In this document: positions 36,941-51,648 of the stretch, one piece after another
How positions within the stretch are numbered: the first letter of the stretch is position 1
Layout: each line of letters begins with the position of its first letter
Assembly (NCBI GenBank): GCA_017625695.1
Contig: JAGAKI010000079.1
Location: forward strand, 72,299-136,298
Length of the DNA stretch: 64,000 bases
Source: Clostridia bacterium
GTDB taxonomy: Bacteria > Bacillota > Clostridia > UMGS1840
Direction of reading: 5' to 3'
Translations under genes and position numbers: made by a program
Notes under the pieces: model-generated
Told to the model about the DNA's origin: nothing
Databases searched by the model: none
What the model saw: the letters and a program-made list of their open reading frames with translations, nothing else

Positions 36941-37267
36941 GAGCGTGTCATCAAAATTTGGAACGAAAGGTTCCCGAGGGTGAATATTACGACCGCTTGA
37001 ATTTGTAAAACCCTTTCAAGCTAAGGCCAGACGGACAGCCGGGTCGAACGCCGAAACGCCGGATAAAAACATCCGGTTGGCAGGGAAAACCTGCCTTATT
37101 GATTGAGTTAGAAGCTCAAATTTTATAAGTTGGTTCCTTTACAACCATGTGCCAAACAGCACACATCGACTTGTGAAACGGTCAATAAGAGTACGCGTAT
37201 CAAACTCTGAAACCTATCCAAATTGTCAAGGGGTGTTTTGTCCCCTTTGGGAAAACGATTCTTACAA

Positions 37268-37304
37268 GCGGTGTGTCTTAGGGCATACCGCTTTTTGTTT
37301 TTTT
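37268..37304 (+). terminator. leader (attenuator) terminator upstream of potA
   Basis: 8-bp stem GCGGTGTG/CATACCGC followed by TTTTTGTTTTTTT. It ends 30 nt before the potA GTG. Confidence 0.7.
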
Positions 37305-37333
37305 CTAAATTTTCGGGGAAGGGTGAAGCCTTA

Positions 37334-38455
37334 GTGGAACATAAAAAGATTATTGAATTACAAAATATTTCCAAGGAGTTTGAAGACGAACAGGTGTTAA
37401 GCTCCATCAATTTAGATATCTATGACAAGCAGTTTGTGACCTTGCTTGGTCCCTCCGGTTGCGGAAAAACCACCACCTTACGAATTGTGGGCGGTTTTGA
37501 AACTCCCGATCAGGGGGATGTGCTGTTTGAGGGAAAACGCATCAACGATGTGCCTGCCCACAAGAGAAGCATCAACACCGTGTTTCAGAAATATGCTTTG
37601 TTCCCTCATTTGAATGTGTTTGAAAATGTGGCATTTTCTCTGCGGTTACAGAAACTTCCCAATGCGGAAATTATCAAACGTGTGAAAGAAATGCTGGAAC
37701 TGGTTGCCCTAAAAGGCTTCGAGCGAAAAAACGTAACCAAATTATCCGGCGGTCAGCAACAGCGTGTTGCCATCGCCAGAGCCTTAATCAGCCATCCCCG
37801 TGTGTTGTTGCTGGACGAGCCTCTGGGTGCGTTGGACTTAAAGCTTCGGAAAGATATGCAGAACGAACTGAAAAAAATCCAGAAACAGACCGGCATCACC
37901 TTTATCTATGTTACCCACGACCAGGAGGAAGCACTCTCCATGTCTGACGTGGTAGTAGTTATGGCAGAGGGCAAAATTCAGCAAATCGGAACTCCAACCG
38001 ATATCTATAACGAACCCGTCAATGCATTTGTTGCTGACTTTATCGGTGAAAGTAACATTGTAGACGGCATTATGAACGAAGATTATAAGGTTACCTTCTC
38101 CGGACACACCTTCCAATGTGTGGATAAAGGCTTTGCCCCCGGGGAAGCGGTGGATGTTGTGGTACGTCCCGAAGATGTGGATGTGGTAAACGTAGCCGAC
38201 GGAATGTTACAGGGGACTGTAACTTCTGTTACCTTCAAAGGGGTTCACTATGAAATCATCGTGGATATCGGTGGTTTCAAATGGATGATTCAGTCCACTG
38301 ATTTTGTGGATGTGAATGCCAATATCGGCATCTTTATTGAACCCGATGCCATTCATATTATGAAGAAATCCGAATTCTCCGGTCAGTACGGTGACTATTC
38401 TACCTTCTCTGACGAAATTGAAGAACTGGGAAACTCCGAAACGGTAGGTGACTAA
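37334..38455 (+). CDS. potA: spermidine/putrescine ABC transporter ATP-binding protein
   Basis: [30 protein letters not shown], and a C-terminal TOBE-like domain. GTG start follows a GGGGAAGGGTGA RBS. Confidence 0.92.
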
Positions 38456-39518: not shown

Positions 39519-40325
39519 ATGAAAGCTTTGTCCCGAATCTATACCGCTTTGATTTTCATCATTTTATACATCCCCATTGTGGTGCTGATGCTGTTTTCCT
39601 TTAACTCTACAGCCAACACCGGTGATCTGACGGGGCTTTCTTTGTATTGGTACCGTGAGCTGTTTTCCTCTCCCGATACCTTCAACGCCTTAAAAAATAC
39701 CCTGGTGCTGGCAGTCAGTGCATCAGTAATTTCCACTGTCATCGGAACTGCGGCAGCGGTGGGACTTTGTAAATTCAAAAAAAACTTCTTTAAAAATTCG
39801 GTCCTTTCTGTCACCAATATTCCCATGATGAATCCCGATATCGTAACCGGGATTTCCATGATGCTTCTGTTTGTGTTTTTAGGAACCTTATTGGGCAGAG
39901 ATGAAAAGCTGGGATTCACAACCCTTCTGATTGCCCATGTTACCTTCTGTCTGCCCTATGTAATTTTATCAGTACGTCCCAAAATCTTAACCATGCCCCG
40001 TTCCTTACCCGAAGCGGCACAGGATTTGGGTTGTACCCCTCTGCAGTCCTTCTTTAAAGTGGAACTGCCTCAGATTTTACCCGGTGTGATTTCCGGATTT
40101 ATTCTGGCATTTACCTTGTCGTTGGATGATTTTGTCATTAGTTACTTCACCACGGGAAACGATTTTCAGACCTTACCGTTACTCATTTATTCCATGACCA
40201 AAAAAGAGGTGAAACCGGACATCTACGCCCTTTCCACCTTAATGATTTTAACAGTTACGGTGCTGTTGATACTCTCTAACGTATCGTCCAAAGAAAAAAG
40301 CACAGAAAGAAGGTTGACACTGTAA
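39519..40325 (+). CDS. potC: spermidine/putrescine ABC transporter permease
   Basis: 6 TM, EAAQDLG loop. Confidence 0.9.
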   Translation: MKALSRIYTALIFIILYIPIVVLMLFSFNSTANTGDLTGLSLYWYRELFSSPDTFNALKNTLVLAVSASVISTVIGTAAAVGLCKFKKNFFKNSVLSVTNIPMMNPDIVTGISMMLLFVFLGTLLGRDEKLGFTTLLIAHVTFCLPYVILSVRPKILTMPRSLPEAAQDLGCTPLQSFFKVELPQILPGVISGFILAFTLSLDDFVISYFTTGNDFQTLPLLIYSMTKKEVKPDIYALSTLMILTVTVLLILSNVSSKEKSTERRLTL

Positions 40326-41530
40326 TGAAAAAAGTTCTTTTGTTATGGGTGGTATCGGTTTTTCTGGCGGTTTCTCTTTCCGGATGCGGCGGGCAGTCTG
40401 AAAAACTCACCTTAAATGTATATAACTGGGGAGAATATATTTCCGATGGCAGTGAAGATTCTCTGGATGTGAATGAAGAATTTGAAAACTACTGCCGTGA
40501 TGAGCTGGGGATGGAGGTTTCGGTCAACTATACCACCTACGCCAGCAACGAGGATATGTATAACAAACTAAAAAGCGGTTCCGCTACCTACGATGTTGTG
40601 ATTCCCTCGGAATATATGATTGAAAAAATGATAGCAGAGGATATGCTCTCTCCCCTTGATTTTTCCAATATCCCCAACTATCAGTATATTGACGACAATT
40701 TTAAAAACCTGTTTTTCGACCCGGACAATACCTATTCGGTGCCCTACACCTACGGAATGGTGGGTATTATCTACAACAGCGAAATGGTTGCAGAAGAAGA
40801 CTTGGGAAGCTGGGATTTACTCTGGAACGAAACCTACAAAGGGCAGATTCTGCAGTTCAACAACCCCCGTGATGCCTTTGGAACTGCTATCTACTGGGCA
40901 AAAGACAGCGTAAACTCCACCGACCCTGCGGTATGGCAGTCTGCAGTGGAAAAGTTAAAAGCACAGAAGCCCCTCATCCAAAGCTATGTTATGGACGAAA
41001 TTTTCAATAAAATGAAAAATGGCTCTGCTGCCATTGCTCCTTACTATGCAGGCGATTATCTCACCATGTATGATTCCAACGATTTATTAGGCTTCTACTA
41101 TCCCGAAGAGGGGACAAACGTGTTTGTAGATGCGATGTGCGTCCCCGCCTGTGCCAAAAATCAGGAGTTGGCAGAACTCTATATCAACTTTATGCTGGAA
41201 AAAGAAATTGCTATCGCCAATGCAGAATACATCGGCTATGCATCTCCCCATACCTTAGTCCGTGAAGATGAGGACTACATCGCCTATATGCAAGACTGGC
41301 ACGATGATGCAATGGAAATTCTCTACGCCCAAGACTCGGCAGTCAAAACCGAATATTACGAAAGTTTAGATACCGATACACTGTCATTGCAAAACAGTCT
41401 GTGGGAAACCTTAAAAATTGAAAATGCGGTGGAACCCTGGATTTATATGACTGCGGGAACCATTGTAGGAGCATTGATTTTATTCTTCCTATATAGCTAT
41501 TTTGTAAAAAGATACCGCAATCATTATTAA
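40325..41530 (+). CDS. potD: spermidine/putrescine-binding lipoprotein
   Basis: Lipobox LSGCGG and a PotD/PotF-type SBP body. An extra C-terminal hydrophobic helix (TAGTIVGALILFFLYSYF) is present. Confidence 0.85.
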   Translation: MKKVLLLWVVSVFLAVSLSGCGGQSEKLTLNVYNWGEYISDGSEDSLDVNEEFENYCRDELGMEVSVNYTTYASNEDMYNKLKSGSATYDVVIPSEYMIEKMIAEDMLSPLDFSNIPNYQYIDDNFKNLFFDPDNTYSVPYTYGMVGIIYNSEMVAEEDLGSWDLLWNETYKGQILQFNNPRDAFGTAIYWAKDSVNSTDPAVWQSAVEKLKAQKPLIQSYVMDEIFNKMKNGSAAIAPYYAGDYLTMYDSNDLLGFYYPEEGTNVFVDAMCVPACAKNQELAELYINFMLEKEIAIANAEYIGYASPHTLVREDEDYIAYMQDWHDDAMEILYAQDSAVKTEYYESLDTDTLSLQNSLWETLKIENAVEPWIYMTAGTIVGALILFFLYSYFVKRYRNHY

Positions 41531-41555: not shown

Positions 41556-41603
41556 AAAAAGACGAAATTCAAATTTTTTACTTTTGAATTTCGTCTTTTT
41601 TTT
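41556..41603. terminator. bidirectional terminator module (family copy 1)
   Basis: A5-GACGAAATTCAAA-10 nt-TTTGAATTTCGTC-T8. Serves potD (+) and Cys-rich gene A (-). Confidence 0.85.
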
Positions 41604-41853
41604 ATATTTCACTTGATTTTATTTGTTCTTGTATTTCTTCTATCTTTTCTAATTTTAAAGTGTAATTCTCATTGCGGGGACACTCAATATGCACACATTC
41701 GTTACAAGGTTTTTTCCGAAAATGCTCAATACAACAACCCAAATAGTTACATTCGTCACAACAACATTCGTTCCCGTTTTCTCCGTTTCCCGGGCAGTCT
41801 TTTCCGCCATTTCCCGGAATCAGTTCAATTCCTGTAGGTCCGTCAATAATCAT
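41602..41853 (-). CDS. small cysteine-rich protein, paralog A (83 aa, 10 Cys)
   Basis: MIIDGPTGIELIPGNGGKDCPGNGENGNECCCDECNYLGCCIEHFRKKPCNECVHIECPRNENY.... GGAGG RBS 7 nt upstream. Only synonymous differences from copy C. Confidence 0.85.
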   Translation of the reverse strand: MIIDGPTGIELIPGNGGKDCPGNGENGNECCCDECNYLGCCIEHFRKKPCNECVHIECPRNENYTLKLEKIEEIQEQIKSSEI

Positions 41854-41865
41854 AGTTTTTCCTCC

Positions 41866-41899
41866 AAAAATAAAAAAGTGCGCAGCCGAAGCTACGCAC
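41866..41899 (-). terminator. leader terminator immediately upstream of the RBS of paralog A
   Basis: Minus strand GTGCGTAGC-TTCG-GCTGCGCAC followed by TTTTTTATTTTT, then GGAGG. Confidence 0.7.
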
Positions 41900-42059
41900 G
41901 AAAAATGCATAACTCCTTTGCTTGCAACAAAAATTGTTTCACACGGTATAATAAACCAAAAGTATGCGAAAACAGAGCATGCATTTTTACCTTAGTAAAA
42001 TGCACACTTATGGCGTTATTATACCACCAGTATCAATATACAATTTTTGTTGCAAAGTT

Positions 42060-42088
42060 ATTGTACCATCTTTTTAGAAAAATGTCAA
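42060..42088 (-). promoter_or_regulatory. promoter of paralog A
   Basis: Minus strand TTGACA-17 nt-TACAAT with an extended-10 TGG. Confidence 0.7.
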
Positions 42089-42094
42089 TCTTTG

Positions 42095-42244
42095 TTCATT
42101 TTTTTCTTTGATAGCAAAGAAAAAACGAACCAAAAAAAGAAACTACCGCCTGGTATTTTCGCAATCCCGGACATTCGTCTTTTGAACTGTGTATTCGATT
42201 GCGAAAATAAGGGCGGATTTTTTTCGTTTCGTCTTTCGATAACG
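42095..42244 (+). repeat. ~145-bp interspersed element, copy E3
   Basis: Same conserved CCGCCTGGTATTTTCGCAAT...ATTGCGAAAATAAGGGCGG core. Confidence 0.8.
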
Positions 42245-42423
42245 AAAATGGGTTATCTGCAACCTGACAGAGAAAACTACTATGTAATTGTTTGCAAGCG
42301 AATGATAGAACAGCCGTGCGGCGACTGAGCACTCGTGTAAAAGGGGTAAGGGGTTCGTTAAGGGGGATAGGGGGAATATCGAAAATTCCCCCTGCTCCCT
42401 TGACATAAAAAAACGAAAAAGTA

Positions 42424-42452
42424 TTGCAAAATTAGAATATTTATGATAAGAT
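42424..42452 (+). promoter_or_regulatory. promoter of paralog B
   Basis: TTGCAA-17 nt-TAAGAT with an extended-10 TGA. Confidence 0.6.
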
Positions 42453-42643
42453 AAAAGTGCTAAACAAACAGAATACTGTTCTATGGGAAAATCAGCCACA
42501 CTTACAGTTGGATATGATTCCTTATTTTTGTACACTCTAATCGTATGAATTTTGCTAAAAAACGCAGATTCCAAGCGGTTAGAGTGCTGGGTTGTTCCCT
42601 CTCTATTCTGTTTGTTTAGCGACTACGGGAGTTTGCGTTTTTT

Positions 42644-42675
42644 GTGCGTCAACGACCGTTGGCGCATTTTTTATT
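42644..42675 (+). terminator. leader terminator immediately upstream of the RBS of paralog B
   Basis: GTGCGTCAAC-GACC-GTTGGCGCAT followed by TTTTTATTT, then GAAGGAG. Confidence 0.65.
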
Positions 42676-42691
42676 TGAAGGAGAGAAATCT

Positions 42692-42943
42692 ATGATTATT
42701 GACGGACCTACAGGAATTGAACTGATTCCGGGAAATGGCGGAAAAGACTGTCCGGGCAACGGAGAAAACGGCAACGAATGTTGTTGCGACGAATGTAACT
42801 ATTTGGGTTGTTGTATTGAGCATTTCCGGAAAAAACCTTGTAACGAATGTGTGCATATTGAGTGTCCCCGCAATGAAAATTACGGATTACGACTGGAACG
42901 AATCCGTGCATTGGAAGAACAAATCAAAAACGATACGATATAA
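42692..42943 (+). CDS. small cysteine-rich protein, paralog B (83 aa)
   Basis: The first 65 aa are identical to A and C with at least 7 synonymous changes. The C-terminal 18 aa diverge (GLRLERIRALEEQIKNDTI). Confidence 0.85.
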   Translation: MIIDGPTGIELIPGNGGKDCPGNGENGNECCCDECNYLGCCIEHFRKKPCNECVHIECPRNENYGLRLERIRALEEQIKNDTI

Positions 42944-42978
42944 AAAAGAGGAAATTCATCTGAATTTCCTCTTTTTTT
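42944..42978 (+). terminator. Rho-independent terminator of paralog B
   Basis: AGAGGAAATTCA/TGAATTTCCTCT followed by T6. Confidence 0.8.
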
Positions 42979-43083: not shown

Positions 43084-43112
43084 TTGACAAATGGGGTAAA
43101 ATCTGTTATCTT
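43084..43112 (+). promoter_or_regulatory. hrcA operon promoter
   Basis: TTGACA-17 nt-TATCTT with an upstream TG. Confidence 0.6.
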
Positions 43113-43119
43113 ATAGTTG

Positions 43120-43146
43120 TTAGCACTCAGACGAATAGAGTGCTAA
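43120..43146. promoter_or_regulatory. CIRCE operator (HrcA binding site)
   Basis: TTAGCACTC-N9-GAGTGCTAA, a perfect consensus. Confidence 0.95.
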
Positions 43147-43213
43147 CAACACAAAAACCCTTACAAACAAAGGATTTTCCAGATAGAATGTTATGGAAAG
43201 GAGCGGTTACCGA

Positions 43214-44254
43214 ATGGATTTGGACGGCAGAAAAATTGCCATATTAAAGGCTTTGATTGAAGACTATATTGAAACGGCAGAACCGGTTGGTTCCCGTACC
43301 ATTGCCAAAAAATGTGATATCGGATTATCTTCGGCAACCATCCGGAACGAAATGTCCGACTTAGAAGAAATGGGGTATCTGGCACAGCCTCACACCTCAG
43401 CAGGCAGAATTCCCTCCAATCTGGCATACCGGCTGTATGTGGATAATCTGATTGAAAATATCAGAGCTACCAATCTGGAAATGGAATTCATCAAACAGAA
43501 AATGGAGTCCCATCTGTCGGAATTGAACCGGTTTTTAGACTTTTCGGCAAAAGCTATTTCCGACTCCACGGGTCTGACCGCAGTCACGGGAGCACCCCGG
43601 GTAACCTCGGGTGCCATCAGCCATTTTGAAATTGTGAAGGCGTCGGAACATTATTTAATGTTTATTTTAGTAACAAATACGGGTATGATTAAGAAGCGGC
43701 AGGTCAGAATCTTAACGCCCATTGATGATAATTCCATTTTGTATCTGAAACAGATTTTAAACGAAGAGCTTGCCGGTTGTACCCTGGAAATGATTACTGC
43801 CGACAAGGTGGAACGTTTAAAACGCCGGTTCAATGATAATTTTGAACTGTTGGGCATCATTTTGGAATTTGTCACTCAGACGATGGAAGCCTCCGGCGGA
43901 ACGGAATACCACTTCAGCGGAAAATCGGAAACCTTAAAAGCTCCCGAATTTTCCAGTATGGATAAGGTGCTTGGCTTTTTGGATCTGGTGGATGACCAGG
44001 AGCAGATTACTTCACTGATGAATACGGCTTCTTCCAACAAAAACGGCATTACCGTTGTGATTGGTGACGAAAGTCCCATTTTAAAGAACAAGGACCTGAG
44101 CATGGTGGTTTCCACCTATCGAGCATACGGCGGAAAAAACGGTGCCATTGCGGTCATCGGTCCCAAACGAATGAATTACGGTAAAGTCATCACCACGTTG
44201 GAAGCCATGTCCAAACTGATGAGCGATATCTTAGAACACACAGAAGGAGAATAA
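43214..44254 (+). CDS. hrcA: heat-inducible transcription repressor HrcA
   Basis: N-terminal winged helix (RKIAILKALIEDYIETAEPVGSRT). Operon context. Confidence 0.93.
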   Translation: MDLDGRKIAILKALIEDYIETAEPVGSRTIAKKCDIGLSSATIRNEMSDLEEMGYLAQPHTSAGRIPSNLAYRLYVDNLIENIRATNLEMEFIKQKMESHLSELNRFLDFSAKAISDSTGLTAVTGAPRVTSGAISHFEIVKASEHYLMFILVTNTGMIKKRQVRILTPIDDNSILYLKQILNEELAGCTLEMITADKVERLKRRFNDNFELLGIILEFVTQTMEASGGTEYHFSGKSETLKAPEFSSMDKVLGFLDLVDDQEQITSLMNTASSNKNGITVVIGDESPILKNKDLSMVVSTYRAYGGKNGAIAVIGPKRMNYGKVITTLEAMSKLMSDILEHTEGE

Positions 44255-44255
44255 A

Positions 44256-44783
44256 ATGAAAAAAGAAAAGCAGCAACCCGAAGCGGTAGAAGAAACCGTG
44301 GAAGAAACTTTGGATGAAACAACAGAAGAAGTAACCGAAGAAGATCCTGTCAAACAACTGGAAGAGCAAATCAACAGCTTAAAGGACCAGAATCTTCGCC
44401 TGATGGCAGAATTTGAAAACTATAAAAAGCGTACCCAGAAGGAAAAAGAACAAAGCTACGAATTTGCAACTGCAGATACTGTGGGAAAACTGCTTCCCAT
44501 TTTGGATACTTTGGAATTGTCCTTAACTCAGGATGCCACCGATGGGAACGCCTTTAAAGCAGGCATTGAGCTGACCGTAAAACAGTTCCGTACCATTTTG
44601 GAAAAAGCGGGCGTTACCGAAATTCCGGCACTCCACGAACCCTTTAATCCGGAGCTTCACAATGCAGTACTCCGTCAGGAAGACGGCGACGGCGAACCCG
44701 ACACGGTAGTGGAAGTGCTTCAGAAGGGTTACACCTTACATGACAGAGTCATTCGTCACTCCATGGTAAAAGTAAAAGCATAG
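44256..44783 (+). CDS. grpE: nucleotide exchange factor GrpE
   Basis: Acidic N-terminus, coiled coil, AEFENYKKR motif. Confidence 0.94.
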   Translation: MKKEKQQPEAVEETVEETLDETTEEVTEEDPVKQLEEQINSLKDQNLRLMAEFENYKKRTQKEKEQSYEFATADTVGKLLPILDTLELSLTQDATDGNAFKAGIELTVKQFRTILEKAGVTEIPALHEPFNPELHNAVLRQEDGDGEPDTVVEVLQKGYTLHDRVIRHSMVKVKA

Positions 44784-44850
44784 CTTTATATATATATATT
44801 ATTCATTTTTTTAGTTCACAACTTGTGAGAATAGAAAGGAAGATCTTATT

Positions 44851-46689
44851 ATGGCAAAAATCATTGGTATTGACTTAGGTACTACAAACTCCTGCGTAGC
44901 AGTAATGGAAGGCGGCGAGCCGGTTGTTATTGCAAATGCAGAAGGCGCAAGAACTACCCCCTCTGTGGTAGCATTCACCAAAACCGGGGAAAGACTGGTA
45001 GGTCAGGTTGCAAAAAGACAGGCAATCACCAACCCGGAAAAAACCATCAGCTCTATCAAAAGAGATATGGGTACTAATAAAAAAGTAAACATTGACGACA
45101 AAGCATACACTCCCCAGGAAATTTCCGCTATGATTCTGCAGAAACTAAAAGCAGATGCAGAAAACTATCTGGGGGAACCCGTTTCTCAGGCAGTTATCAC
45201 CGTTCCCGCATACTTCTCTGATGCACAGCGTCAGGCAACCAAGGATGCCGGCAGAATCGCAGGTCTGGAAGTGCTTAGAATCATCAACGAGCCTACTGCA
45301 GCATCGTTAGCATATGGTCTGGATAAAGATACCGACCACAAAATTATGATTTATGACTTGGGCGGCGGTACCTTCGACGTTTCTATCTTGGAAATCGGCG
45401 ATGGCGTATTTGAAGTACTGGCGACCAACGGTAACAACCGTCTGGGCGGTGACGACTTTGACGACAGAGTAATGAACTATCTGGCAGACGAATTCCAAAA
45501 AGAAAACGGAATTGATTTACGTCAGGACAAAATGGCTCTGCAGAGATTAAAAGAAGCGGCAGAAAAAGCAAAAATCGAACTGTCCGGTATGACCACCGCA
45601 TCCATCAATCTGCCCTTTATTACCGCAGATGCAACCGGTCCCAAACATTTAGATTTGACATTAACCCGTGCAAAATTTGACCAGTTGACGGAAGATTTGG
45701 TAAAAGCCACCATGGAACCCACCAAAAAGGCAATGGCAGATGCAGGGCTTTCTCCCTCCGACATTGCAAAAGTTCTGTTGGTTGGCGGTTCTTCCAGAAT
45801 TCCTGCCGTTCAGGAAGCTGTGAAAAACTTCATCGGCAAAGAACCCTTCAAAGGCATCAACCCCGACGAATGTGTTGCAATCGGTGCAGCCATTCAGGCA
45901 GGTGTATTGGCAGGTGACGTGAAAGACTTACTGTTATTGGACGTAACTCCGCTGTCTTTGGGTATTGAAACCTTGGGCGGTGTTTGCACCAAACTGATTG
46001 AAAGAAATACCACCATCCCCACCAAGAAGAGCCAGGTATTCTCTACCGCAGCAGACGGTCAGACCGCTGTTGATATCCACATTCTGCAGGGTGAAAGAGA
46101 AATGGCAGCAGATAACAAAACTCTGGGTAACTTCCAGCTGACCGGTATTCCTGCAGCTCCCAGAGGTGTTCCTCAGATTGAAGTTACCTTTGACATTGAC
46201 GCCAACGGTATTGTTCACGTTAGTGCAAAAGACTTAGGTACCGGTGCGGAACAGAAAATCACCATTACTGCTTCCACCAACTTATCCGAAGCAGACATCG
46301 ACAAAGCGGTAAAAGAAGCAGAACAGTTTGCTCAGGAAGATAAAAAGAAAAAAGAAGCAATCGATGTGAAAAATCAGGCTGACTCTATGGTTTATCAGAC
46401 GGAAAAAACTCTTGCAGATGCAGGGGATAAACTGAGTGCAGAAGACAAATCCGGCATTCAGGCTGAAATTGATAAATTAAAAGAACTCTTAAAGGGTGAC
46501 GATACCGAAGCCATCAAAGCAGGCACAGAAGCCCTTACTCAGAAAATGTATGCAGTAGCTTCCAAGCTGTATCCTCAGGGCGACCCCAACATGGGCGGTG
46601 CTGACATGGGTACAGGAGCAGCCGGCGGTGCACAGACCGATGACGGTGCTTATGAAGCAGATTATACTGTGGTAGATGACGATAAATAA
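44851..46689 (+). CDS. dnaK: molecular chaperone DnaK
   Basis: GIDLGTTNS and DLGGGTFD. 612 aa. Confidence 0.98.
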
Positions 46690-46751
46690 GAGGTATGATT
46701 TCCGGCAGGTTCTCCCTGCCGGAAATATCCATGTTAACGGAGAGATAGCGT

Positions 46752-47897
46752 ATGGCACAAAAAAGAGATTATTATGAAGTGCTTGGGGTGTCCAAGAGTG
46801 CGACAGAGGCGGAACTGAAAAAAGCCTACCGTCAGGTAGCAAAAAAGTATCATCCCGACTTAAACCCCGACAATAAAGAAGCAGAAGCCAAGTTCAAAGA
46901 AGCAAACGAGGCTTACGAAATCCTGTCCGACCCTCAAAAACGTCAGCAGTATGACCAGTTTGGTCATGCAGCGTTTGAAAACGGCGGGGCAGGTGCCGGC
47001 TACGGTGCCTACGGAGATTTCGGAGGCTTTTCCGATATTTTTGACAGCTTTTTCGGTGGCGGTTTCAGCGGCTTTGGCGGCGGTGGCGGCAGAAACAGAA
47101 GAAACGGTCCCCAAAAGGGTCGGGACTTACAGAAAAGTGTCACCATCACCTTTATGGAAGCCTGCTTTGGCGTAAAGAAAGAAATTTCCATTTTAAAATA
47201 CGAAGCGTGTAGCGAATGTGGCGGATCGGGTGCCAAAAAGGGGACTTCTCCGGAAACCTGTCCCACCTGTCACGGAAGCGGTACGGTGAATCAGACCCAG
47301 CGGACTCCGTTCGGAGCGTTCCAGACCTCTGCCCCCTGTTCTCATTGCGGCGGTACCGGTCAGATTATTAAGGAATCCTGTAAAGCCTGCGGCGGTAGCG
47401 GTCAGGTCAGAAAAACCAAAACCTTGGAAATTAACATTCCCAAAGGAATTGATGACGGTCAGACCTTAACCATCCGCGGGGAAGGAGAACCTGGCAAACG
47501 CGGCGGTCCCAACGGCGATTTATACTTAGAAATCCGAGTGCAAAAAGATAAGATTTTCCAGCGTGACGGCTACGATGTATATGTGGAATTGCCCATCACC
47601 TTTACCGAGGCGGCATTGGGTGCCAAAGTTGTGGTTCCCACCATTGACGGAAAAATCGAAATGAACATCCCTGAAGGAACTCAACCGGATTCCCGTTTTG
47701 TATTAAAAGGAAAAGGGATTCCCTATCTGCGTGGAAACGGCAACGGCAATCAGTATGTGATTGTAAAATTAGAAGTTCCCAAAAAGCTCAGTCAGAAACA
47801 GAAGGATTTGCTGAAAGAATTTGAAGGCACCTACGAAGGCTCCAACCATTCCAAGAAGAAATCCTTTATGGAAACCCTAAAAGATATGTTTTCCTAA
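46752..47897 (+). CDS. dnaJ: molecular chaperone DnaJ
   Basis: J-domain HPD, G/F region, four CxxCxGxG repeats. Confidence 0.97.
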
Positions 47898-48983: not shown

Positions 48984-49029
48984 AAAAAGACGAAATTCAA
49001 ATTTTTTACTTTTGAATTTCGTCTTTTTT
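48984..49029. terminator. terminator module (family copy 2)
   Basis: GACGAAATTCAAA-9 nt-TTTGAATTTCGTC with flanking A and T tracts. Near-identical to 41556-41603. Confidence 0.8.
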
Positions 49030-49030
49030 G

Positions 49031-49282
49031 CTATATTTCACTTGATTTTATTTGCTCTTGTATTTCTTCTATCTTTTCTAATTTTAAAGTGTAATTCTCA
49101 TTGCGGGGACACTCAATATGCACACATTCGTTACAAGGTTTTTTTCGGAAATGCTCAATACAACACCCCAAATAGTTACATTCATCACAACAACATTCGT
49201 TCCCGTTTTCTCCGTTTCCCGGGCAGTCTTTTCCGCCATTCCCCGGAATCAGTTCAATTCCTGTAGGTCCGTCAATAATCAT
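49031..49282 (-). CDS. small cysteine-rich protein, paralog C (83 aa)
   Basis: The protein is identical to paralog A. Six synonymous nucleotide differences, and a TAG stop where A has TAA. Confidence 0.85.
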   Translation of the reverse strand: MIIDGPTGIELIPGNGGKDCPGNGENGNECCCDECNYLGCCIEHFRKKPCNECVHIECPRNENYTLKLEKIEEIQEQIKSSEI

Positions 49283-49295
49283 AGATATTTCCTCC

Positions 49296-49328
49296 AAAAA
49301 TAAAAAATGCGCAGCCGAAGCTACGCAC
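49296..49328 (-). terminator. leader terminator immediately upstream of the RBS of paralog C
   Basis: Minus strand GTGCGTAGC-TTCG-GCTGCGCAT followed by TTTTTTATTTTT, then GGAGG. Confidence 0.7.
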
Positions 49329-49490
49329 GAAAAATGCATAACTCCTTTGCTTGCGACAAAAATTTACATCTTAGGGCATGAAACTCCAAAAGTATGCAAA
49401 AACAGAGTATGCATTTTTACCAATAGTAAAAATACACACTTTCAGAGTAATTCATGCAGAGAATCAATATGAAATTTTTGTCGCAAAATT

Positions 49491-49519
49491 ATTGTACCAT
49501 AAATATTCTGATTTTGCAA
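49491..49519 (-). promoter_or_regulatory. promoter of paralog C
   Basis: Minus strand TTGCAA-17 nt-TACAAT with an extended-10 TGG. Confidence 0.65.
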
Positions 49520-49699
49520 TACTTTTTCGTTTTTTTATGTCAAGGGAGCAGGGGGAATTTTCGATATTCCCCCTATCCCCCTTAACGAACCCCTTACCCC
49601 TTTTACACGAGTGCTCAGTCAACCCACGGCTGTCCTATCCGACAATTTGGAAAACGAAAGAAAGATGTTCCACATTAGGCTTTTGGTAACCTATAATAT

Positions 49700-49851
49700 C
49701 GTTATCGAAAGACGAAACGAAAAAAATCCGCCCTTATTTTCGCAATTCTCTACCGTTATCAAACGACGGAGGTTCGGGATTGCGGAAATACCAGGCGGCA
49801 GTTTCTTTTTTTGGTTCGTTTTTTCTTTGCTGTCAAAGAAAAAAATGAACA
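49700..49851 (-). repeat. ~145-bp interspersed element, copy E4 (reverse orientation)
   Basis: The reverse complement matches E1 and E3. Confidence 0.8.
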
Positions 49852-49898
49852 TATAAAAAAATTTTAATTCCAAACAACGTTTGGTCACAACCACACAG

Positions 49899-50120: not shown

Positions 50121-50528
50121 TTAGAATTCTTTTTTCAGTTCAACACCGTTTGCATCGGTAGAAATGGAACCGGTTAACAGTCTGATAAAGTCAATTAATG
50201 CCCAGATAGAACCGCCAACACCGGTACATACGGTCAATACGATTTTAATGATACCCCATTTGGTGTAGCCTAAGTAGAAATCGTGAATACCGATTCCGCC
50301 CAAGAAGAAAGCTAACAGAACAGCAGTCAGCTTGGATTTCTGTTCGCCGTTAGCTGCTACAGCAGCTTTTACAGCAGCACCGCAGCTGGTACAGATAGCA
50401 GCACCGGGATTAATGGGCTGTCCGCAATTTGCACAGAATTTTTCTCCGTTTCCTTTCGCAAAGCCGCAGCTCATACAAGCTACCGCATTTTCGTTCATTT
50501 CTGCGCCACAGTTTTTACAATACATCAT
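50121..50528 (-). CDS. double zinc-ribbon / TM2-domain membrane protein
   Basis: Two CxxC...CxxC ribbons (CKNCG..CMSCG, CANCG..CTSCG) plus a TM2-like region LLAFFLGGIGIHDFYLG. Confidence 0.75.
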   Translation of the reverse strand: MMYCKNCGAEMNENAVACMSCGFAKGNGEKFCANCGQPINPGAAICTSCGAAVKAAVAANGEQKSKLTAVLLAFFLGGIGIHDFYLGYTKWGIIKIVLTVCTGVGGSIWALIDFIRLLTGSISTDANGVELKKEF

Positions 50529-50552
50529 AAAGTCCCCCTCGTAAAAATAAAT

Positions 50553-50900
50553 TTAGAATAGTATAATTTTTATCATCCAGTTTATCATTGCCACGGCTGC
50601 AATTCCCAATAAGAGATAGCGGTGTATGCGATGTCGCAACTCAAATAACAGATACACAACTACATACGGCAGAAAAAAGATGGTCACATTATAAGCTGCC
50701 GCACCTGAGAAATCTCCTTTCAGTAAACAAAGAAAGGCACGTGTCATCCCGCAGCCGGGACAGGGAATTTTAAAAAATTCCAAAAACACACAGGAAATTC
50801 CAAAATAATTCATCACCGTGTATGCCACGGCAAAATAGAAAATGACCGCCAAAAAAACCAACAGTTTTTTGGGGATATCTTTGTTTGTTTTCAGCATCAC
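50553..50900 (-). CDS. DUF2752-like membrane protein
   Basis: CPGCGMTRAF motif. 4 TM. Confidence 0.7.
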   Translation of the reverse strand: MMLKTNKDIPKKLLVFLAVIFYFAVAYTVMNYFGISCVFLEFFKIPCPGCGMTRAFLCLLKGDFSGAAAYNVTIFFLPYVVVYLLFELRHRIHRYLLLGIAAVAMINWMIKIILF

Positions 50901-50916
50901 AGAACGACGGTTTTGA

Positions 50917-51408
50917 TTAACCTTTCACGTTGTAATCTGCGCACATCAGATTGGTGGCTTTGAATAATTTATGGGTATAAACAAAGGGACCGATCAGAAT
51001 GATGCTTCCCAATACGTTCCACAGCCAGAAATCTGCACAGGAGAACTTGTAATCGATATTTCTTCTTTTTAATTCGTTACCGATACGATTGGAAATTTTG
51101 TGGAGCCACACAATAGCAGCAATTCCAAGGGTAATGGGAGCAATAATGAAGTATAACAGGCAGTAATGCATGGTTCTTTTTCCGTCATAGCGGCTGGCAA
51201 CAATGTTGATATCGTTGCTGACGGAAGACATTACAACCAGACCGTAAATCCCGAAGGTAATCAGATTCAACAGGATATACTTCAAAAGACCTTTGTTGGT
51301 TTTTAACTGACCAACGGGTGCTTGGTACGATTGCACCGCAGCACCGCAGCCTACGCAGACAGCGGCACCTTCATTGATTTGTGCACCGCAGTTACTACAG
51401 AATTTCAT
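50917..51408 (-). CDS. zinc-ribbon / DUF4234-like membrane protein
   Basis: MKFCSNCGAQI..CVGCGA ribbon and a LLNLITFGIYGL region. Start follows a GAAGGAGGAAG RBS. Confidence 0.7.
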   Translation of the reverse strand: MKFCSNCGAQINEGAAVCVGCGAAVQSYQAPVGQLKTNKGLLKYILLNLITFGIYGLVVMSSVSNDINIVASRYDGKRTMHYCLLYFIIAPITLGIAAIVWLHKISNRIGNELKRRNIDYKFSCADFWLWNVLGSIILIGPFVYTHKLFKATNLMCADYNVKG

Positions 51409-51648
51409 AGTTTCTTCCTCCTTCTGATATGACACTTCCTAATATGTCATATTTTTACAAATTATAACATAATATTTGGTTCTTGACAAGTGGTATTTCA
51501 CAAAAAAACCTCATTTTTTCTTTACAATTTTGAGACAAAAGAGTATTTCATTCAGGAAAGAACCCAAAAACCTTGTAATTTACGGAAAAAATTTCATCCA
51601 CACCTTGCAAAAAAAGGAAAAGCATATTATAATATAGAATAGTGGAAT

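Follow-up and report, generated by a model that had tools for sequence, protein, structure and literature searches.

A cysteine-rich mini-protein, putatively metal-binding, behind a proposed riboswitch-like attenuator leader in a Clostridia bacterium

A stretch of 64,000 nucleotides (nt) from a Clostridia bacterium (GenBank assembly GCA_017625695.1, contig JAGAKI010000079.1, positions 72,299 to 136,298 of the forward strand; here called the window) carries three open reading frames (ORFs) for a cysteine-rich protein of 83 amino acids (aa). The ORFs are designated A, B and C (Table 1), and their translations were exactly those given by an earlier sequence-only reading of the window. What does this small protein do, and why does an intrinsic terminator stand before each of its genes? 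Each locus probably encodes a mini-protein that putatively binds metal, under the control of a riboswitch-like attenuator of a new type. We infer the mechanism and consider this reading as a whole to be likely, well short of assured.

A cysteine-rich protein family without a name

Substitutions were counted by the Nei-Gojobori method. Proteins A and C were identical, and their genes differed by 6 synonymous and 0 non-synonymous changes, in agreement with the earlier count. Over codons 1-64, A and B differed by 6 synonymous and 0 non-synonymous changes and B and C by 9 and 0, the 64-residue core of B having the same amino acids as those of A and C. Codons 65-83 of B, which encode the C-terminal helix, were heavily replaced (non-synonymous divergence, dN, about 0.55), as the earlier reading had also noticed. 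In the core, 0 of 155 non-synonymous sites were changed among the three copies vs 5-9 of 37 synonymous sites. Over 15 close homologs the median core ratio of non-synonymous to synonymous divergence (dN/dS) was 0.09, and this wider calculation upheld the purifying selection first suspected from the window. An ENA metagenome scaffold carried the same locus in the same gene order; the three ORFs were annotated there, with a Pfam match for 0 of them. The protein of ORF B is deposited as an NCBI 'hypothetical protein'. These substitution patterns show that the 83-aa ORF does code for a protein and is under purifying selection. That the frame is instead an accident of a repeated non-coding element might be thought from the position of the ORFs inside larger repeats, amid other repeat families (X, Y and hairpins resembling repetitive extragenic palindromes, REP). 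This is effectively refuted by the strong bias of changes to synonymous sites, by the retention of frame, start, Cys positions and length across 590 clusters of homologs, and by an ORF identity that is kept behind wholly different upstream regions (leader or palindromic promoter).

One sequence search gave 135 homologs. They were named 'hypothetical protein' wherever the source named them; the named ones came from Clostridia, Oscillospiraceae or Ruminococcus metagenome-assembled genomes (MAGs), and 0 of the 135 had a Pfam domain. A profile search against 1.84 billion representatives yielded about 590 clusters at 50% identity, 141 of them at E <= 1e-10. Among the matches listed, every cluster was 45-156 aa long, had one matched stretch and came from gut Clostridia. 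A scan with one genome per species returned 268 coding stretches, the best 80 of the 268 all being from Clostridia; cultured carriers among the scan matches were Fumia xinanensis NSJ-33 and Acetivibrio sp. MSJd-27. Loci numbering 3-5 per genome were common in single MAGs. Several copies per genome are thus usual for this family, and the three copies in the window are not the oddity that they had been taken for.

The family consensus was MIIDxTGxxLIPGNxGxDCPGNGE-(0-8)-CCCDECDYxxCC-x7-8-CxxCxDxxCPR. LIPGN, CPG, CC-EC and the later Cys positions were invariant in the homologs. The N-terminal 25 residues were highly conserved, the spacer residues between the cysteines varied, and the C-terminal helix was limited to the closest ~15 relatives. 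The Cys/His spacing previously proposed for the three window proteins was correct for these proteins and did not extend to the family, in which nine of the ten window cysteines were invariant or nearly so, C30 varied and neither histidine was conserved.

In accordance with the earlier view that the protein belongs to no named family, searches of Pfam (E <= 1), NCBIfam (families and precursor models), PHROGs and PADLOC gave no match. PDB, searched by single sequence and by profile, returned non-significant Cys-rich noise only (Shisa, E = 0.14). A literature search, whose incomplete coverage leaves absence unproven, found no description of the protein or of its leader RNA. As far as these searches reach, the family to which the protein belongs is real but unnamed. 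Some members had unusual forms. A 156-aa homolog (P0234) carried the Cys-rich domain fused to a C-terminal Xre-type helix-turn-helix domain (HTH_3, E = 5.5e-9), a fusion that hints weakly at a possible sensor role of the Cys-rich module inside the cell. In a 118-aa homolog (P0227) the N-terminal half of the domain was present twice, in tandem. The single match in a viral collection was partial (L126:5001-5105, on a 125-kb IMG/VR contig; residues 9-42, 54% identity).

For the neighbourhood survey, every ORF of 80 aa or more that lay up to 5 kb from one of ~75 homologous loci was clustered. No neighbour family was common to more than 9 of the ~75 loci, and the neighbours shared by up to 9 reflected local synteny or were ubiquitous ABC ATPases at varying distance. 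No radical-SAM or lanthipeptide maturase, peptidase or ABC-export gene was conserved nearby. The earlier observation that no maturase, transporter or partner gene is adjacent therefore applies in the window and at the ~75 homologous loci. The 83-aa gene is monocistronic, and a classical locus for a ribosomally synthesised and post-translationally modified peptide (RiPP), of the SCIFF/ranthipeptide or sactipeptide kind for instance, is accordingly unlikely. A RiPP or bacteriocin precursor could still have its enzymes encoded elsewhere, the N-terminus serving as leader peptide and the Cys-rich part as modified core; the very conserved N-terminal 25 residues, the variable residues between the cysteines and the frequent multicopy state of precursor genes would suit this. 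We give it very little credence: besides the lack of conserved modification and export genes, no NCBIfam precursor model matched, there was no conserved cleavage motif (the residue preceding the invariant G17 was variable), and the P0234 homolog is fused to an intracellular type of domain.

Leader RNA and its alternative helices

Each of the three loci is a self-contained expression cassette, made up of a sigma-A promoter, a structured leader of 206-239 nt, an intrinsic terminator, a Shine-Dalgarno (SD) sequence, the 83-aa ORF and a second terminator. The SD and downstream terminator formerly reported for every copy were found at A, B and C. The most distinctive feature of the loci is the intrinsic terminator before each SD, which ends the long covarying leader; its hairpin ends 10-12 nt before the SD and ~20 nt before the start codon. 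Independent scans called the A and C promoters and all three leader terminators. The position of the A promoter in its cassette was kept in homologous leaders, and the B promoter occupied the place in repeat Y that corresponds to the C promoter. The repeated unit is larger than the ORF and takes in the promoter and the leader of ~200 nt. Common to A and C are about 300 nt, leader included, and identical palindromes after their ORFs; B and C share the two upstream repeat blocks X and Y at the same position relative to the gene.

Single-sequence folds of the A and B leaders were far more stable than those of shuffled sequences (Table 1). For 19 leaders, RNAalifold predicted a 13-bp helix P1 with compensatory changes at 12 pairs; for 11 short leaders it added a helix P2. 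A hand-built model (P1, P2, inner hairpin and terminator) was 83% paired vs 38-50% in slid controls. The covariance model made from this structure matched the three window copies and ~40 copies in genome loci, and it confirmed 37 of 45 metagenome loci that had been fetched by a conserved-core pattern. In 57 copies fitted with this model, 92.6% of cells were paired vs 29-58% when slid, and covariation was seen at 13/13 pairs of P1 and 11/11 pairs of P2; as many as six pair types occurred, and G.U pairs were numerous. The predicted leader is a long covarying rod of P1, P2 and an inner hairpin between segments 1 and 2 (seg1:seg2), and the long B-type leaders (8 leaders) follow the same plan. At gathering thresholds, the only window match among the 4227 families of Rfam 15 was SpF59/ldcC at 36990, none lying at the leaders; at E <= 10 over both cassette regions, the ORF terminators alone drew matches, which were weak and of hairpin type. 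A conserved, structured leader RNA that Rfam 15 lacks is, on these alignments, well supported.

The leader also has three mutually exclusive helices. Seg2, AAAAAUGCAxGCUC, lies inside the P1 domain and comprises the 3' strand of the inner hairpin and the adjacent junction. It is complementary to seg3, GGAGnnnUGCAUUUUU, which is located directly 3' of P1 and has the 5' arm of the terminator (seg4) as its alternative complement. Seg4 in turn pairs with seg5 in the terminator hairpin, which is followed by the U-run. The three helices would thus be an anti-antiterminator (seg2:seg3), an antiterminator (seg3:seg4) and the terminator (seg4:seg5). In the 57 copies the seg2:seg3 helix, which was outside the structure of the covariance model, was 80-90% paired with 7 compensatory pairs; its duplex energy was -9 kcal/mol or better in 56 of 57 copies (median -14.6). 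The antiterminator of 12 bp was 87.6% paired with 4 compensatory pairs, and in B-type leaders RNAalifold picked it over the terminator. Summed helix energies for the ON and OFF states were -27.6 vs -32.4 kcal/mol in A and -31.7 vs -30.3 kcal/mol in C, a near balance and therefore what a switch needs. As in attenuators, a G+C-rich hairpin with U-run stood between promoter and SD in the 57 copies, and a conserved alternative helix sequestered the terminator 5' arm. A conserved, SD-preceded upstream ORF over the first switching segment was not seen. Any upstream ORFs occurred in 17 of the 57 leaders, were non-homologous and mostly began with TTG, and leader-peptide attenuation was rejected on this ground.

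By the mechanism that we propose, seg3 would invade the inner hairpin from the single-stranded GCUC beside seg2, pairing through its GGAG. Once seg2:seg3 has formed, the terminator would be free to fold and transcription would stop, leaving an RNA of ~190 nt (OFF). An effector (small ligand, ion, protein or RNA) would lock the inner hairpin and junction, so that seg3 pairs with the terminator 5' arm, and RNA polymerase would then read through the seg3:seg4 antiterminator into the ORF (ON). The opposite polarity of the switch is also conceivable.

The leader was not confined to the 83-aa gene. Upstream regions of homologs fell into two classes, of which the close relatives, including the three window copies, had a promoter, a leader of ~170-240 nt and a hairpin with U-run. 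Elsewhere leader copies preceded a second Cys-rich gene (L001), a Cu_amine_oxidN1 secreted protein (L012-14, L023) and a HicB-like protein (L060). Metagenome leaders stood before BspA-type leucine-rich-repeat (LRR) surface proteins, lipoproteins (one with an Ada-type zinc domain), zinc-ribbon membrane proteins, DUF6809, a YpsA/SLOG protein and several small helical proteins. At L020:5471-5998 and L104:14047-14549, two or three promoter-leader-terminator modules were arranged in tandem, the upstream ones without an ORF. From the extra copies before unrelated genes and the tandem orphans, the module appears to be a general regulatory cassette. There are probably tens of leader copies per genome in these lineages, a rough figure extrapolated from the ~8 extra copies counted over ~300 kb. 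Natural 'leaderless' variants were found at L003:5900-6000 and L017:5900-6000, where unrelated sequence (the end of an oppositely oriented gene) had replaced the leader up to the terminator loop and the 3' half of the terminator alone remained before the SD.

Terminator/antiterminator leaders of Firmicutes (T-box, Bacillus subtilis trp and pyr attenuators) have the same general layout. In them too, a sigma-A promoter is followed by a long 5' leader with extensive structure, antiterminator and terminator helices exclude each other shortly before the SD, and an 'anti-antiterminator' adds a third level; T-boxes likewise occur in many copies per genome. Unlike these systems, the window leader matched none of the 4227 Rfam families and had no T-box sequence, specifier loop or leader peptide. 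Protein-binding repeats were not noticed in it by eye, its sensor is a simple rod with little conserved unpaired sequence, and the genes behind it are heterogeneous surface or accessory genes rather than a metabolic pathway. Cyclic di-GMP (c-di-GMP) riboswitches of Clostridia occur in many copies upstream of adhesin, pilus and surface-protein genes. They resemble the present leader as multicopy, terminator-controlled leaders before heterogeneous, often cell-surface genes, but the Rfam-negative window leader has no sequence or structure similarity to them; the comparison is an analogy of distribution only.

Two other explanations of the leader were weighed. It may be a multicopy gene for a stand-alone small RNA (sRNA) of ~190 nt, with promoter and terminator, that acts in trans, the ORFs being expressed by leaky read-through. 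The promoter does belong to the repeated module, the tandem orphan copies in L020 and L104 have their own promoters and no ORF, and the terminator sequence itself is highly conserved. Most copies, however, have an SD and start codon within ~10-20 nt of the U-run and no apparent separate promoter for the ORF, and a conserved covarying antiterminator would be purposeless in a pure sRNA gene. We regard this explanation as unlikely, although sRNA and attenuator functions need not be mutually exclusive. Less likely again is a DNA-inversion switch like that of Clostridium difficile cwpV, where a RecV-dependent invertible element controls an intrinsic terminator (PMC2784873). The P1 arms would then be recombinase-recognised inverted repeats, the orientation in the assemblies would be the OFF state, and flipping of the ~100-130-bp segment would remove seg2, let the antiterminator form and turn the gene ON. 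The layout is similar: an upstream promoter, inverted repeats between promoter and ORF (P1 arms of 13-19 nt, 100-130 nt apart; ~100-200 bp bounded by the repeats), ~60 nt to the ATG and orientation-dependent intrinsic termination as the deciding event (PMC2784873). Surface-protein genes are among the targets in both cases, and the genes behind the leader elsewhere (BspA LRR surface proteins, Cu_amine_oxidN1, lipoproteins) are typical phase-variable cargo. When the interior was flipped in silico, its best duplex with seg3 weakened from -15.6 to -9.8 kcal/mol in A, from -21.2 to -9.3 in B and from -15.6 to -12.9 in C. Against inversion, 0 flipped interiors were present among ~75 confirmed copies, by a pattern search able to catch flipped copies on the other strand, and all 8 pattern matches that lacked a covariance model match were unrelated DNA. 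Three independent assemblies of the window locus were collinear, 100% identical and of the same orientation. P1 is rich in G.U pairs, which are G-T mismatches in DNA repeats; P2, deep within the segment, covaries as inversion does not need; and the window terminator lies outside the repeats, whereas that of cwpV is at the left repeat junction.

Putative function of the protein

Nine conserved cysteines lie within ~40 residues, among them a C-x2-C-x4-C-P motif after CC-x2-C-x4-CC. This motif had been called ferredoxin-like, but the canonical CxxCxxCxxxCP pattern was absent and no Fer4 profile matched (Pfam, E <= 1). The Fe-S or zinc module suggested earlier is plausible in view of the nine conserved cysteines. 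Metallothionein profiles (SmtA/BmtA, Metallothio_Pro; signature around K-C-A-C-x2-C-L-C) gave no match in Pfam, NCBIfam or PDB. The checks once suggested for the protein (hidden Markov models, AlphaFold and Foldseek) led to no characterised family and no confident core fold. AlphaFold2 models from 59- and 102-sequence alignments had confidence scores (predicted local distance difference test, pLDDT) of 64 and 66 and were confident only for helix 64-81; Foldseek of the model against PDB gave 0 matches. No signal peptide or transmembrane segment was evident, and the host lineage is one that we take to be strictly anaerobic, which together make disulfides improbable. Most likely the genes encode a small protein of the cytoplasm that binds metal, as a Zn/Cd/Cu-thiolate or Fe-S cluster on its nine cysteines. 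We think metal binding itself rather likely, as a prediction, and any specific role in metal buffering or sensing doubtful at best. Paralogous amplification and tight default-off control would fit a dosage-dependent buffering or stress role, and the C-terminal amphipathic helix of this lineage probably serves oligomerisation or partner binding.

The bacterial metallothionein SmtA holds Zn4 with Cys9His2. Bacterial metallothioneins (SmtA/BmtA, Pfam Metallothio_Pro) resemble the present family in small size, cytoplasmic location and roughly nine conserved cysteines. Both groups lack any further recognisable domain, are tightly controlled at transcription and have amplified genes; the window copies also have two histidines. 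The window family differs from them in having no Pfam match, other Cys spacing, metal binding that is only predicted, a conserved N-terminal beta-like segment (MIIDxTGxxLIPGN) and a lineage-specific C-terminal helix. The comparison with SmtA is one of analogy, not of membership.

In the second upstream class, that of distant homologs, there was no leader. A short 5' region carried a promoter TTTACA-17-TATAAT under a long palindrome, TATAGACTAATACAT-TATATA-ATGTATTAGTCTATA, and 17 of 17 occurrences of this palindromic promoter in the fetched loci preceded a member of the Cys-rich protein family. The palindrome TATAGACTAATACATTATATAATGTATTAGTCTATA covered a near-consensus promoter, with an upstream AGATAATATCT dyad, about 30-60 nt before the start codon (L027, L031, L036, L038, L040-L042, L045, L047, L052, L065, L067, L069, L073, L078-L080), and half-site changes in palindromes of this type were sometimes compensated. 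Other distant lineages use other palindromes, namely ATGCATTGCAnnTGCAATGCAT, TTTTAGAGnTATATACTCTAAAA and ATGTTATAAnTTATAACAT. By their sequence these palindromes look like candidate repressor operator sites; we know of no assignment of them to Fur/PerR/Zur, CsoR, CopY or ArsR-type boxes. The family thus appears under two unrelated controls, some lineages using an RNA attenuator and others a palindromic promoter that resembles an operator. Such convergent tight control suggests a protein whose benefit comes in bursts and which is a burden at other times, as would be expected of a buffer for metal or redox state. The nine cysteines, the improbable disulfides, the failed apo-structure prediction, the amplification and the two default-off controls together fit a metal-thiolate or Fe-S mini-protein made in bursts.

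Several observations count against a metal-binding protein gated by a riboswitch-like attenuator. For the protein, pLDDT was 52-57 over the Cys core, so that the core fold is unreliable, no sequence or structure match to any metalloprotein was found (PDB sequence and profile searches, Foldseek), and composition is the sole ground for predicting metal binding. For the RNA, the helix definitions of copy B strongly favour OFF, and the orphan tandem leaders suggest that the terminated RNA may also function by itself. The alignment of the 57 copies, being fitted by the covariance model, leans towards the modelled helices; seg2:seg3 and the antiterminator are outside that model. In comparison with metabolite riboswitches, the downstream genes are heterogeneous and most conserved nucleotides are held by the switching strands, not by junctions able to form a ligand pocket. 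A protein- or RNA-controlled or purely kinetic attenuator therefore fits as well as a riboswitch.

Cassette coordinates, surroundings and implications

Table 1. Positions of the cassette features in the window (CM, covariance model; MFE, minimum free energy; strand. for features assigned to neither strand)
Feature	Position	Strand	Basis or remark
Terminator after ORF A, bidirectional hairpin	41556-41600	.	45-nt palindrome
ORF A, 83-aa Cys-rich protein	41602-41853	-	translation, synonymous bias
Leader RNA, A	41854-42059	-	MFE -68.6 kcal/mol, z = -6.5; CM match 78 bits, E 1e-12
Leader terminator, A: GTGCGTAGC-TTCG-GCTGCGCAC + T-run	41878-41899	-	scan; hairpin end 12 nt before SD 41861-41865
Seg3, A: GGAGUUAUGCAUUUUU, partner of seg2 or terminator 5' arm	41901-41916	-	12/12 pairs with GUGCGUAGCUUC in MFE fold
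Seg2, A: AAAAAUGCAUGCUCU, predicted anti-antiterminator strand inside P1 domain	41974-41988	-	seg3 duplex -15.6 kcal/mol; helix covaries, 57 copies
P1 arms, A	42040-42055 / 41922-41937	-	
P2, A	42016-42025 / 41945-41954	-	
Seg1 of inner hairpin, A	41995-42005	-	
Promoter, A: TTGACA-17-TACAAT, TG-extended	42060-42088	-	scan, 11/12 consensus
Promoter, B: TTGCAA-17-TAAGAT, TGn-extended	42424-42452	+	read from sequence; 8/12, below scan threshold
Leader RNA, B (long, B-type)	42453-42691	+	MFE -76.8 kcal/mol, z = -5.8; CM match 36 bits
P1 arms, B	42457-42475 / 42604-42623	+	18-bp covarying P1 (8 B-type leaders)
Seg1, B	42546-42555	+	
Seg2, B: AAAAAACGCAGAUUCC	42557-42572	+	duplex with seg3 -21.2 kcal/mol
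Seg3, B: GGGAGUUUGCGUUUUUU	42627-42643	+	B-type leader alignment, duplex energy
Leader terminator, B	42644-42667	+	scan; hairpin end 10 nt before SD 42678-42683
ORF B, 83-aa Cys-rich protein	42692-42943	+	translation; = P0001
Terminator after ORF B, hairpin	42942-42977	.	perfect 17-bp hairpin between A/T runs
Terminator after ORF C, bidirectional hairpin, identical to that of A	48984-49028	.	45-nt palindrome
ORF C, 83-aa Cys-rich protein, same sequence as A	49031-49282	-	translation
Leader RNA, C	49283-49490	-	CM match 67.5 bits
Leader terminator, C	49307-49328	-	scan; hairpin end 11 nt before SD 49291-49295
Seg3, C	49330-49345	-	duplex with seg2
Seg2, C	49404-49418	-	duplex with seg3 -15.6 kcal/mol
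P1 arms, C	49472-49486 / 49351-49365	-	
Seg1, C	49426-49439	-	
Promoter, C: TTGCAA-17-TACAAT, TG-extended	49491-49519	-	scan

The SpF59/ldcC RNA (36990-37054, plus strand; 63 bits, above the gathering score) lies upstream of spermidine/putrescine transporter genes. An ABC ATPase ORF is at 37223-38455, and the genes for permease and binding protein, at 39519-41530, stop shortly before cassette A. The hrcA-grpE-dnaK-dnaJ heat-shock operon (43193-47897) has cassettes A/B on one side and C on the other, and is preceded by a CIRCE operator, TTAGCACTC-N9-GAGTGCTAA, at 43120-43146 on the plus strand and a promoter-like site at 43084-43112. Beside cassette C, membrane proteins with N-terminal zinc ribbons (TM2, DUF2752 and DUF4234 families) are encoded at 50121-51435 on the minus strand; zinc-ribbon membrane proteins were also found behind the leader elsewhere (L087, L088, L099).

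A REP-like hairpin, GGGACGATGCCCACATCGTCCC, occurred as 22-nt sites, 11 vs 0 expected by chance, with positions at 2520, 4538, 10568, 14330, 27463, 32535, 39433, 43022, 49900 and 50019. Three sites flank the cassettes, and the hairpin was also present upstream of leaders in L001, L004, L010 and L011. Repeats X (42079-42245 and 49699-49865) and Y (42304-42468 and 49475-49639), upstream of the B and C promoters, had 87-92% identity between copies and no Rfam match. Repeat X recurred upstream of leaders in L002 and L005. Repeat Y is G-rich, contains the hairpin GGGGGAATATCGAAAATTCCCCC and recurred in L012-L014.

Two uncharacterised elements thus emerge from one locus: a nine-Cys protein family, and a structured RNA with a predicted three-layer termination switch. 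In behaviour each resembles a known kind, the one a small metalloprotein and the other a terminator/antiterminator leader, and neither fits a described family, their functions being predictions from sequence. The protein family belongs to gut Clostridia, is unannotated in the libraries searched, strongly constrained and amplified within genomes. A possible, if doubtful, extension is that the leader represents a new ligand- or signal-sensing RNA class (a riboswitch for a global signal, for example an ion or second messenger), with tens of copies per genome in uncultured gut Oscillospirales, that switches on surface, secreted and accessory genes; nine-Cys metallothionein-like or Fe-S mini-proteins of a new family would be what it most often precedes in the relatives sampled. 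Dozens of unrelated genes, many of them for the cell surface, stand behind the leader RNA. Should it sense a signal, these would form a new regulon in uncultured organisms, and the leader is a directly testable orphan for riboswitch research.

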